Shown piece by piece: positions 41,190 to 49,627 of a DNA stretch of 64,000 nt (positions are counted from its first letter, which is position 1; every line of letters starts with the position of its first letter). Source of the stretch: a virus (lineage: Duplodnaviria > Caudoviricetes); the IMG/VR virus record IMGVR_UViG_3300024259_001623; one strand, written 5' to 3'. The notes beneath the pieces are model-generated. The model saw only the letters and a program-made list of their open reading frames with translations. It did no database searches and was not told where the DNA came from. A program made the position numbers and the translations under genes.

Positions 41190-41607
41190 CTTCTTTTTTG
41201 GCTTCTTCTAAAAGAACCTCATCTTTTTCTTCATCAACGGAAAAAGGTAAAACCCACATATATTTCAATGGAGTATCCAGACCGCAATATGACACTTTCA
41301 CACTATCTTCTGATATATCTTCAATTTTTAAAAACACGTTTTTGAAATATATGTAATGTTCATCTCTCCAAGAGATTTTGGCTTGTGAAGAACAGTCAGC
41401 CTCAAACTCATATAATTCTTCCGCTATTTTAAGAAGCCTAGTTCCGTACAAATTATAAAAGTCTCTAACAAACTGAGATTGTTCAGCCCGCAACTGTTCT
41501 ATCTTTTTCTTATTCTCTGCAAAAACTTTAACATCCATTTTCATCTTTCCTATTTTAGAAATAGGGCAAGGCTGGACTTGAACCAGCATCTCAGGCCACA
41601 TAAGCAT
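41167..41607 (-). CDS. 'W.IPF' tandem paralog 5 of 5 (true start probably MKMDVK)
   Basis: WVLPFSVDEEKDE; the ORF-track N-terminus overlaps a tRNA-like gene. Confidence 0.6.
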   Translation of the reverse strand: MLMWPEMLVQVQPCPISKIGKMKMDVKVFAENKKKIEQLRAEQSQFVRDFYNLYGTRLLKIAEELYEFEADCSSQAKISWRDEHYIYFKNVFLKIEDISEDSVKVSYCGLDTPLKYMWVLPFSVDEEKDEVLLEEAKKEVEEHYGV

Positions 41608-41681
41608 TTGAAGAGTTCTTATGGTTTCTAAAAAACATTCTTATTGTTGTCAGCCCCCGCTCTACCGTTAAGCTACCTGCC
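41563..41681 (-). ncRNA. tRNA-like RNA with about 55-nt insertion in the anticodon loop
   Basis: GGGCAGG/CTTGCCC, GCTT/GAGC, GGGCT/GGCCT, GCTGG-TTCAAGT-CCAGC all intact. Confidence 0.75.
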
Positions 41682-41756
41682 CAAATATCAACAACCTTTA
41701 CAGCATCCTCTTTTGCTGCGTCCTCATCAGGGAAAAACACCGGACTAAATATAAAA

Positions 41757-41830
41757 TAGGGCGAGAGGGATTCGAACCCTCAACTTTTCGGTTAAAAGCC
41801 GAATACTCTGATCCATTGAGTTACCGCCCC
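41757..41830 (-). tRNA. tRNA-Lys(UUU)
   Basis: TTCGG-CT TTT AA-CCGAA. Confidence 0.88.
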
Positions 41831-43225
41831 GTTAAACTATTCTACTGGAACCCATTTGGTTACAGTAACTTCTTTCTTTACAACTTCTACTGGTTCAGGA
41901 TCATCATAATCAAACGGTCCTTCATCCTGAGTCTCAGTTGCTCCTACGCTCCAACATAAAGAATAATGCTTACCAGAAGGCTTATGTTTGAATACGCCCT
42001 CATAATGAATAGACCATCGACTAGTATCTATAACCTCTCCCTCTATACGTTCCCAATCATCATGATCATTATAAACAATATCAGCACCTTCTACTCTTGT
42101 TAATTTCATAATATTCTTCCTTCTCTCTTAAAAATCTCTTCCATTCTCAACGCATTGGCATAAGCATCTTCTGGTTCATATCCATGAATCAGATTTGCTT
42201 TAATCCAACCTTCAAAACGAAGTCTATCTCTGTCTCTTGCTTCCCTTTTGATCTTCATAGCCTCAAATCTACAAGTACTATGATAACCTTTTTCCTTATC
42301 ATTTGCCTCATAAAGCTCTATACCGCAAACAAAACATTCTTCTTTGGACATTTTTCTTCTTCCTTATTCTAAATCTATGCCAAATTCTTTTTTAACAGCA
42401 TCCTTAAACATCTGTACGACCTCTGGATGCAAATCTTTTCTATCTTGTAACTCAGACATAGTATAAAGCCCAAACCTGTCACAAATGGATTTTTTCAAAT
42501 CTTTCTTAAACTTTCTAACATCCACTTTGTGGTCTATTCTAACTTCATGCTCTAATATACGATCCAAAGTTGCTTTAGAAAACATTATAACCCCTTAACT
42601 ATTAAAACTATTTACTCTATCTTGGATATCCTGCTGAAACCTCTTTAAATCACTTTCCTCTCCAGAAACAGTTACATAGAACATGGAATCAAGCCATCCC
42701 TTATCCTCATCAACTGTTATTTGAACAGAATGATAAGTAGATGTGTAATATAATAGGCTTCTTACTTGGCGTCTTAGGATAATACCTGCTGACATCTGAA
42801 AACGCAATGTTGCTGTATCACTCATTATTTCTTCTTTCCTATTCCTAGAACATCCTTCCCATACTTTTCAATAGCGTCTGATAACATCCAATCATAATCA
42901 AATACGAAATTATTATCTTCTACCCATTGATTACAATAATTTCGCCAAATCGAAAGAACAGTAAAATCATCTAAACCGAATGTTTCATCATAAGCCCAAC
43001 AATCATCATCTTCCCCAAAACGCATTTTAATTTCTGTTCCCCAGCCTTCTCCACCGAAGAAAAGATCATCATCCTTAATTAATATAAGACGACGTTGACA
43101 GAACATATCGGCGGTGTAACTGCTCCATACAGGCCAACCGATTACAGGTTGTACCTTCTTGACATATTCGTCTATCGCTTCTTTAATGGTTTGATCTTCT
43201 ATACTACTCAAAATAAACTCCTTCT

Positions 43226-43777
43226 TCAATCAATTAACTTCAACTTTCTTGCACGTTTTCTAACAGCATTGTCTGTTACTCCCAATATTTTTCCGATTTT
43301 AACAAAAGAATATTGCTCTATTAATGCTTTTAAATCTACTTCTTCCCATTTAACTTTTCTAGATTTTCTTGTGGCACATAATCTACTACAAGTTTTTTGT
43401 TTCTTTATCTTCATATTACCGCATACAGGACATTTATCCGTTTCCGGTTTTTTCTTTTCTTTATAAGTAACAAATAACTCATTAAACTTTTTTGCATTTT
43501 TAGGAATTTTTCTTTCGCCATAATGTATTTCTGCATGACAATTCCCACAAACTAAAACACATTTTCTTAACTCTTTTATGATTTTGCCCCAACTCTTAGG
43601 ATTAGCTTTAATCTTGCCAAAAGAGAATTCTTTTTCATTTGGGTCTAGATGATGTAGATGCAATGCTGCATGACATTTATTATATCCACAACAAACACAT
43701 TTAGACCCCATTGACTTAACAATACGCTCTTTTGTGTGCTTACGCCATCTCTGAACCTTTTCAGCAGGAGAAAACAT
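43226..43777 (-). mobile_element. free-standing HNH endonuclease
   Basis: CVCCGY..C..ALHLHH.DP..K...C.LVCGNCHAEIH; HTH tail. Confidence 0.88.
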
Positions 43778-47643: not shown

Positions 47644-47645
47644 TA

Positions 47646-48386
47646 TTATGTTCTCCTATTTCCACAGAATTCTCGCTCTGCTGAACTGGTAACATAATCG
47701 ATACCAGTCTCAGTATGTTTAAACGCGACATAGCCACCTGATTTGCCATATCTATTCTTATCTATTTCTAACACAAAAAATCCAGGTAATGCTGGGCCTT
47801 TCTTACATTTCTCATGTGGATACATTTTGGCCTTAATATCAGCAAGATATTCAACATCGTTATTACCTTTGACATCATTTTTCTTATTTAGATGAGCAAT
47901 AAAAATAACATGGCATCCTACATCAGAGATTGCCTTTCTGTATTTCTCCATAATACCTCTAATCAGATAAGGATTAGAGAACCCGTCAATCATATTAATG
48001 GAGTCAACCACCACTACTGCTGGTTGAACGTCTTTAATAATCTTTATTTGATTTTCTAAAGCGTGAGCATTACTAACAAAATATTTTTTAGGATAGACAA
48101 CTGGTTTTTTGATCCAACCTGCGAATTCAGAGGGAGTAACCTCATTTTGGAAAATACAAACTTTATGTCCTTCTCTATTAACAGATAGCGATATTTCTAT
48201 TGCTATTCTTGTCTTGCCTACTCCACCTTTACCAGCCCATATACTAATCTTTCCTTTAGGTAATCCAAAACTTTCTATTCCGTTTATAACTGATTTACCA
48301 TAAATTTGATCCAGATAAGGAAATCCAGTTTTATATCTTTTAATAGGCTCACTTTTTATTTCATCGAACGAAAACACTTTATCCAC
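47646..48386 (-). CDS. RadA/Sms-like RecA-family ATPase (truncated architecture)
   Basis: TGF..LD.I.G, GKGGVGKT, VVVVDSIN, IFIAH.NK, EYLAD, KNRYG; no Zn finger or Lon-like domain. Confidence 0.8.
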   Translation of the reverse strand: MDKVFSFDEIKSEPIKRYKTGFPYLDQIYGKSVINGIESFGLPKGKISIWAGKGGVGKTRIAIEISLSVNREGHKVCIFQNEVTPSEFAGWIKKPVVYPKKYFVSNAHALENQIKIIKDVQPAVVVVDSINMIDGFSNPYLIRGIMEKYRKAISDVGCHVIFIAHLNKKNDVKGNNDVEYLADIKAKMYPHEKCKKGPALPGFFVLEIDKNRYGKSGGYVAFKHTETGIDYVTSSAEREFCGNRRT

Positions 48387-48412
48387 GATACCTCCTAATG
48401 ATCACTAATTTG

Positions 48413-49021
48413 TTAAGATTGCGCAGGGACTTTTTTAATCTTTTTAAATTCATTAATAGGTCTTATACTCATATAAGAGCCTGCCCCGGTTCTCAACATA
48501 AAATCAGGCAAATCATCAGATGATTTAAATATGTCGATACACATTTCCAATTCTCTTAGTTTTTCTCCATAAGGATCAAAACCAGTTAATCTTTGCAATA
48601 TATAAGCATTTTGAATAATACGACCATTTACATCTTTAGCACAAAGAGAGTTCTTAGGAACTTTGTTCTTAAACAAGTCCCATGAGTCTCTTTTTGTCTT
48701 CTTGTCTGTTTGGGCGCTCATTATTCTGCGCATTTCTTTCTTTATCTCAAGAAAAGAATGACGTTTATTAATGCCTAAATTGATGAGAGCCTGGATGAAG
48801 GCGTAATAGATTCCGCCTTGCCGATAGGGGTTAGGGGTATTTCCAGATTTAATTTGAGCCTGGAGCCTTGTGAGCTTTTGAGGGGAATTGTGGTACTTCC
48901 TTGGAATCCGATAATTGCCTCTATTTGTTTTTATGATCTTGGAACGTTGTGAGATGGGAAGATCAGCCTCTTTTTTAATCTTTAAATAATCGTCAAAATT
49001 ACGTGATCCTTCGACATGCAT
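48413..49021 (-). CDS. basic hypothetical protein
   Basis: 202 aa, GGAG RBS. Confidence 0.65.
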   Translation of the reverse strand: MHVEGSRNFDDYLKIKKEADLPISQRSKIIKTNRGNYRIPRKYHNSPQKLTRLQAQIKSGNTPNPYRQGGIYYAFIQALINLGINKRHSFLEIKKEMRRIMSAQTDKKTKRDSWDLFKNKVPKNSLCAKDVNGRIIQNAYILQRLTGFDPYGEKLRELEMCIDIFKSSDDLPDFMLRTGAGSYMSIRPINEFKKIKKVPAQS

Positions 49022-49627
49022 ATTTCACTCCTTAACTAATGAACTAATTTCGTCTTACTACTTAATTATACATCAAAAACAAAAAAATGCAATAATCGGA
49101 AAATTCATAATATTATTACAGTTAATTGTTTATATAATGCGACTTCTGAAACATTTCAAAAATTAAATAAATGCAAAAATAAAAATGTGAGCCTCTTTTA
49201 GAGTTCTTATGGTTTCTAAAAGAGGCTCTTTTCTAAATTATTTTTCAACATTCATTTAATTTACAACATTATAGTTTCACATAACATATACTTCCATTTT
49301 GTACGAGGAGTTCTTTATCTTACATTTCAACGCCTCGATTTATTTTTTTGATACTTGTTTAATATATTCTAGCAAGTATTAAAATACGTCCATTCTTTAA
49401 TTTCTAAATTTACAACCCATAATTATTCTCTCTAATAGTAAGTTTTTATATAACCTACCTAAAAGGTTCTTATCCTTTTATTGTATATAAAAACTCAAAT
49501 AAACCTTTTTAATATACTTTTTAGCGTTGTCACGGAGGATGACTGTTTATAAGCATTTTATTATTTTCCTTAATTATCATAACCTTAAAAATTTCTCGCT
49601 CCCAGTCAGGGAGATTTTTAAAAGATA

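Follow-up and report, generated by a model that had tools for sequence, protein, structure and literature searches.

A 22-bp sequence shared by the insert of a tRNA-shaped gene and the tip of an intergenic hairpin in a huge seawater phage

Why should 22 bp lying inside a tRNA-shaped gene recur, letter for letter, in an intergenic hairpin several kilobases away? The question is raised by a 64,000-nt stretch of DNA from the virus record IMGVR_UViG_3300024259_001623 (Duplodnaviria; Caudoviricetes), referred to here as the window; all coordinates are positions in it. This DNA occurs in seawater metagenomes, the neighbouring proteins are encoded on contigs of 432–434 kb, that is, by a huge phage, and the window holds 24 ordinary tRNA calls together with tRNA-shaped genes that carry inserts, about a dozen of them. 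Walking contigs of the same phage extended the window to 103,310 bp of readable genome, 24% of the ~434-kb phage. The answer we lean towards is that the tract was copied once into a tRNA look-alike that does not decode and tolerates insertions. The elements concerned are the following, those of the tRNA-shaped gene (site 1) being given before those of the intergenic gap (site 2).

41563–41682, minus strand: tRNA-shaped gene, 120 nt, aligned to Rfam RF00005 at 44.1 bits (gathering score 29)
41597–41652, minus strand: insert of 56 nt that replaces the anticodon loop
41612–41633, no strand assigned: first copy of the 22-mer, an exact match
41637–41648, minus strand: 10/12 copy of the 12-nt hairpin loop, 22 nt upstream in the same insert
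49160–49262, no strand assigned: imperfect inverted repeat of ~100 bp, of which the perfect hairpin is the tip
49189–49228, no strand assigned: perfect hairpin, 14-bp arms (49189–49202 and 49215–49228) and a 12-nt spacer
49200–49221, no strand assigned: second copy of the 22-mer, made up of 3 nt of one arm, the 12-nt loop and 7 nt of the other arm

The exact recurrence of the 22-mer at 41612–41633 and 49200–49221, reported in the initial annotation of this DNA, was borne out: the two copies form a direct repeat in the same orientation, ~7.6 kb apart, and the next-best match anywhere in the window has 6 mismatches. A count over the 103 kb gave only these two copies, so that the 22-mer is not a common dispersed repeat. 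The exact sequence is absent from the viral contig and metagenome contig collections, and on these grounds a dispersed repeat or miniature inverted-repeat element was rejected. Its 18-mer and 20-mer cores have one match each, neither within a comparable hairpin; that of the 20-nt core is a single-copy match, at chance level, among 185,579 prokaryote genomes, which hold no multi-copy exact 20-mer. The identity is unlikely to have arisen by chance, because any 22-nt repeat was present in only 2 of 450 Markov-simulated windows and none of 200 shuffles of the site-1 insert reached 22 nt (longest match, 16 nt). Other repeats of at least 19 nt that lie more than 1 kb apart in the 103 kb are mostly tRNA arm motifs or a ribosome-binding region. 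An assembly artefact is likewise unlikely because other assemblies of the same phage, which represent one near-clonal population, carry both sites unchanged; both are interior to contigs and show no differences among assemblies, although one of the sequencing runs compared (X3) may be that from which the window itself comes. The tRNA-like gene is identical in seven loci, some of them from one sample. Beyond the 22 bp, the flanks of the two copies resemble each other at chance level (p 0.10–0.18), and neither a shared 7-mer nor a 10/15 match found there reached significance.

At site 2, the hairpin described around the second copy is present, but its perfect arms are 14 bp rather than 12 and the 22-mer lies off-centre. 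The fold of the inverted repeat 49160–49262 has z −6.4 as RNA and −6.3 and −5.3 as DNA. The gap around the hairpin comprises 727 bp at 25–28% GC; with the large hairpin taken out, its structure is at shuffle level (z −0.17), so a large structured RNA in the gap is not supported. T-rich tracts flank the perfect hairpin on both sides and on both strands, which makes a terminator role plausible; the terminator scan did not call the hairpin, whose 12-nt loop exceeds the limit of the scan. A GC-rich patch at 49620–49700 (minus strand), after the methyltransferase gene, overlaps a 54-codon frame called in some assemblies and folds at shuffle level (z 0.06).

At site 1, the acceptor, D and T arms are intact, with conserved loop bases. 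The anticodon stem has 4 pairs, 56 nt replace its 7-nt loop, and the arm falls short of that of a decoding tRNA; the tRNA body, initially described as otherwise perfect, is good in its other three arms, but the description slightly overstates the case for the anticodon stem. All single excisions were enumerated, and none yields a fully canonical anticodon arm, the best products having 4 of 5 pairs. The Val(GAC) excision product also lacks position 26 and would need a cut inside the stem; ARAGORN, run with introns allowed, calls Val(gac), but as an 88-nt product. Because no single excision gives a fully canonical anticodon arm, we read the gene as non-decoding. A tRNA with a removable intron is not supported on the same evidence (at most 4 stem pairs). 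Homologue searches for the tRNA-like gene found none, and the gene adjoining it has no relatives outside its own cluster. Together with its closing stem, the insert is structured at shuffle level (z +0.23). When the cloverleaf is imposed on the fold, the prediction places the 22-mer in another register than at site 2 and leaves just the first half of the loop exposed. Since the 22-mer spans the loop and only 3 and 7 arm bases, the tRNA copy is unable to form the site-2 hairpin. The additional 10/12 loop copy at 41637–41648 has a shuffle p of 0.026, calculated post hoc.

A tract that was copied agrees better with these observations than a site that was conserved, since the identity ends abruptly within both hairpin arms and the flanks are alike only at chance level. 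The copied arm bases are paired at site 2, and different pairing is predicted for them in the tRNA. In a single event, probably recent, the hairpin tip would have been copied within the genome into the anticodon position of the tRNA-shaped gene, by a template switch during replication or repair or by short ectopic gene conversion. The recipient would no longer decode and would tolerate inserts, and the repeat would be a record of where part of one insert originated and not a general guide system. The direction from hairpin to tRNA is preferred because the bases are integral to the symmetric stem at site 2; the reverse direction, from the tRNA to the gap with subsequent homogenisation of the arms (PMC5941160), is possible. 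Template-switch correction of inverted repeats in bacteria is supported by that work (PMC5941160), and we infer by analogy that template switching at hairpins could extend to a jump of 7.6 kb. We likewise infer the copying mechanism, its recency and direction, and the absence of joint work by the shared bases. Several points weigh against a copying event of this kind. Neither a state before the insertion nor a divergent relative with either site turned up that would show recency or direction, copying accounts for only 22 of the 56 insert bases, and the loop motif described below recurs at a second position in the insert and in nearby hairpin loops, which is unexpected from an accident.

The initial annotation had proposed that the tRNA inserts are captured genomic fragments, or that the RNA displays a copy of a DNA site as a decoy or guide; should other inserts also match genomic sites, the tRNA-like family would be scaffolds carrying guides. 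Capture is plausible for this insert but does not generalise. The eleven other inserts in the window (26–103 nt) are heterogeneous in length and sequence, and their longest matches in the 103 kb are 10–13 nt, the same as those of their own shuffles; a 187-nt insert outside the window has a longest match of 13 nt in the same DNA, not beyond shuffle level. One insert of thirteen thus has a match, and within this quarter of the phage genome no other insert matches anything beyond its shuffles. If all twelve had targets evenly spread over the phage genome, zero matches would be expected with a probability of ~0.04. The notion of the tRNA-like family as guide-carrying scaffolds is therefore not supported, and the same 0 of 12 argues for a one-off copying accident. 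Of the two findings named at the outset as speaking against the proposal, the lack of matches for other inserts is observed and a commonly dispersed 22-mer is not; the proposal is supported in part. No RNA-guided effector was found among the 14 window proteins scanned. An antisense-like match between the insert at 26980–27082 and the site-1 insert was not significant (p 0.15); the insert of this tRNA-like gene (26949–27109) begins with a hairpin (27066–27082, minus strand) that is partly complementary to the 22-mer (gapped, 16/19).

A short loop motif links site 2 to other hairpins nearby.

49439–49497, minus strand: second gap hairpin, in which ATAAGAA is the 7-nt loop on a 7-bp stem (49460–49480)
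49304–49337, minus strand: third, weaker gap stem-loop, with ATAAAGAAC in its loop
45294–45340: the only other perfect 14-bp hairpin of the window, directly after tRNA-Gln, with a 19-nt loop that contains ATAAAGAAT

ATAAGAA or ATAAAGAA thus caps two further stem-loops in the same gap as site 2. The second gap hairpin has z −3.8 for a region chosen post hoc. ATAAGAA ranks first among its own permutations for location in strong stems (5/33, against 40/1342 overall), an enrichment that is local only and belongs to a motif defined and widened after the sites had been seen. None of the seven motif occurrences in the 39 kb of flanking genome lies within a strong hairpin. As judged from sequence, the presence of the motif on several nearby hairpins suggests a loop-binding factor, and because the same short motif caps these hairpins, a decoy for a loop-binding protein has to be weighed. 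In its loop, the third gap hairpin shares a 15-nt exact repeat (49304–49318 and 25340–25354) with a small stem-loop at the end of the gene 25346–25648, a length in the range of chance. Just downstream of the 45294–45340 hairpin, a 9-bp stem carries the loop AAGGAG, likely the ribosome-binding site of the HNH gene 44564–45265.

The genes and promoter-like motifs beside the site-2 hairpin are listed below.

48413–49021, minus strand: gene for a 202-residue protein of predicted winged-helix fold, downstream of the hairpin; no Pfam or PHROG family
47646–48386, minus strand: RecA/KaiC-type ATPase gene, just downstream of the 202-residue gene
49590–49611, minus strand: CCCTG-type promoter-like motif, a consensus match only
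49065–49092, minus strand: sigma-70-like match (TTGCAT, 16 nt, TATAAT), a pattern match between the hairpin and the 202-residue gene

The 202-residue protein probably has a winged-helix fold, judging from its structural model (pLDDT 84.7): among the structural matches listed for it most are winged-helix domains, and the best has Z 7.2, where values below 8 are weak, with a root-mean-square deviation of 3.5 over 77 aligned residues. At a threshold of E 0.001, Foldseek found no match, and an Atlas search gave nothing usable. The hairpin sits between the CCCTG-type motif and the sigma-70-like match that precedes this gene; the latter was not called by the promoter scan tool. The order of a ~200-residue predicted winged-helix family, which has no Pfam name, followed by a RecA/KaiC-type ATPase is found here and in the related loci L009, L013 and L016, and in L016 a similar CCCTG-type motif lies 125 nt upstream of the homologous gene. 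Relatives of the 202-residue gene at 40–63% protein identity have neither the gap nor the hairpin upstream; by gene calls, the one close relative (P0002, 86% identity; assembly ERZ23498361) has a similar 600-nt gap upstream.

Apart from a copying event, a rather unlikely explanation is that a phage or host protein binds AUAAGAA-type loops on the gap hairpins (49022–49600), as RNA or as extruded DNA, and that the tRNA-shaped RNA, as a stable decoy, titrates this protein; one candidate binder would be the adjacent predicted winged-helix protein. Such a decoy would account for the motif standing twice in the insert, in three gap stem-loops and in the loop of the 45294–45340 hairpin, as well as for the preference of ATAAGAA for strong stems, and part of the loop is predicted to be unpaired in both contexts. 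However, a short binding motif would not require identity over 22 bases, the insert shows no structure in excess of its shuffles and folds in another register, homologous genes in relatives lack such an upstream hairpin, and the post hoc motif was never found in a strong hairpin of the flanking genome. The RNA could instead act as a guide or antisense whose pairing partner is either an antisense transcript or, in an extruded cruciform, the loop of the plus strand, and might in this way prime or regulate replication or transcription at site 2. It has the minus-strand sequence of site 2, its 22 nt are perfectly complementary to the plus strand, the target loop would be single-stranded once the hairpin forms, and the site lies in an AT-rich gap before the predicted winged-helix and ATPase genes. 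Against this, the 14-bp stem keeps 10 of the 22 target bases paired, a scan of neighbouring proteins showed no effector, and no other insert has a target in the readable genome, which leaves a guide very improbable. A more general form of both ideas, in which the tRNA body would be a scaffold presenting copies of the loop of the phage's own hairpin and would titrate a loop binder or pair with the extruded DNA loop, we consider clearly unlikely.

Mere coincidence in AT-rich DNA, picked out by a very large scan, seems to us quite improbable. Some 22-nt repeat turns up in about 0.4% of simulated windows, hence in many of ~250,000 windows, and the 22-mer is itself AT-rich with a T-run; yet with one copy confined to the 778 nt of inserts the expectation falls to ~5e-5 (778 × 128000 × 0.276^22), the insert shuffles came nowhere near 22 nt, and of the two best hairpins in the window, one has the second copy at its tip. 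The resemblance to a recombinase site, pointed out initially, would make the two copies att-like cores bounding an excisable segment of 7.6 kb. Their direct orientation agrees with this, as do the inverted arms that enclose an asymmetric core at site 2. Tyrosine recombinase sites, however, have spacers of 6–8 nt, against 12 nt here, and the tRNA copy, in which 11 and 7 of the 14 bases per arm are missing and only 3 and 7 are left, is for that reason no intact recombinase site. A crossover would also divide the tRNA body and disrupt the hairpin, both of which are self-consistent as they stand, and no joint between the two copies is listed in four contig sets, though contigs drop rare variants. 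We regard recombination sites as extremely unlikely.

Some further features of this DNA lie apart from the two sites. The region 14150–15010 contains several Y-RNA-like repeats (weak YrlA matches, below the gathering score), and the gene beside them (12426–14096) matches phrog_850, an RNA-binding protein family; from sequence, the two likely constitute a Ro60/Y RNA module. A helicase-like gene (ResIII/DEAD) at 51190–54216 has C-terminal protein repeats ~180 bp apart, which account for most of the long DNA repeats at 51600–52450. Repeats at the window start are unrelated to the 22-mer; a 19-nt direct repeat (731–749 and 3389–3407), both copies of which are near gene boundaries, is unexplained. 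At ~12890–12930 of contig locus L025, ~2.4 kb before the window start, lies a perfect AT-rich hairpin of 17 bp whose loop is 3 nt long.

What is new here, though small, is that part of one tRNA insert has been traced to another site of the same genome. For the inserts in tRNA genes of huge phages, this case suggests that local DNA copying is one origin; a single case is a clue and not a system. A decoy or guide, if true, would be a new phage use of the tRNA fold.

Among known systems, the tyrosine-recombinase core sites loxP, FRT and dif resemble site 2 in their inverted arms around an asymmetric spacer, and differ from it in that the spacer here is 12 nt long and the partner copy lacks the arms. 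In the protein-sponge RNAs CsrB and RsmY, a short purine-rich motif is repeated in hairpin loops. Such a motif recurs in hairpin loops here as well, but in few copies, with a post hoc definition and a candidate binder only, and with no Rfam match at the gathering score. RNA anti-CRISPRs (solitary repeat units; Camara-Wilpert et al. 2023, PMC10651486), phage RNAs that act as decoys by mimicking a short nucleic-acid element, offer a precedent for a decoy; the element mimicked here would be the phage's own hairpin and not a CRISPR repeat. A possible resemblance to the ends of type II CRISPR repeats was followed as far as the exact 20-mer search of prokaryote genomes, which gave no multi-copy match. 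Template-switch homogenisation (Lavi et al. 2018, PMC5941160) is alike in leaving perfect inner arms within a decayed longer inverted repeat; it is a local correction between arms, whereas here the copying would have reached a site 7.6 kb away. The 'enigmatic' tRNA introns of Lak megaphages (Devoto et al. 2019, PMC6784885) differ in that here no excision restores a canonical anticodon arm, and the available portion of that report mentions no insert matching a distant genomic hairpin. Both cases involve a huge phage with many tRNA genes and extra sequence inside the tRNA body, and in both the insert does not vary between samples of one phage; the gene is placed among the insert-bearing tRNA genes of huge phages, of which those of Lak phages were the first to be reported.

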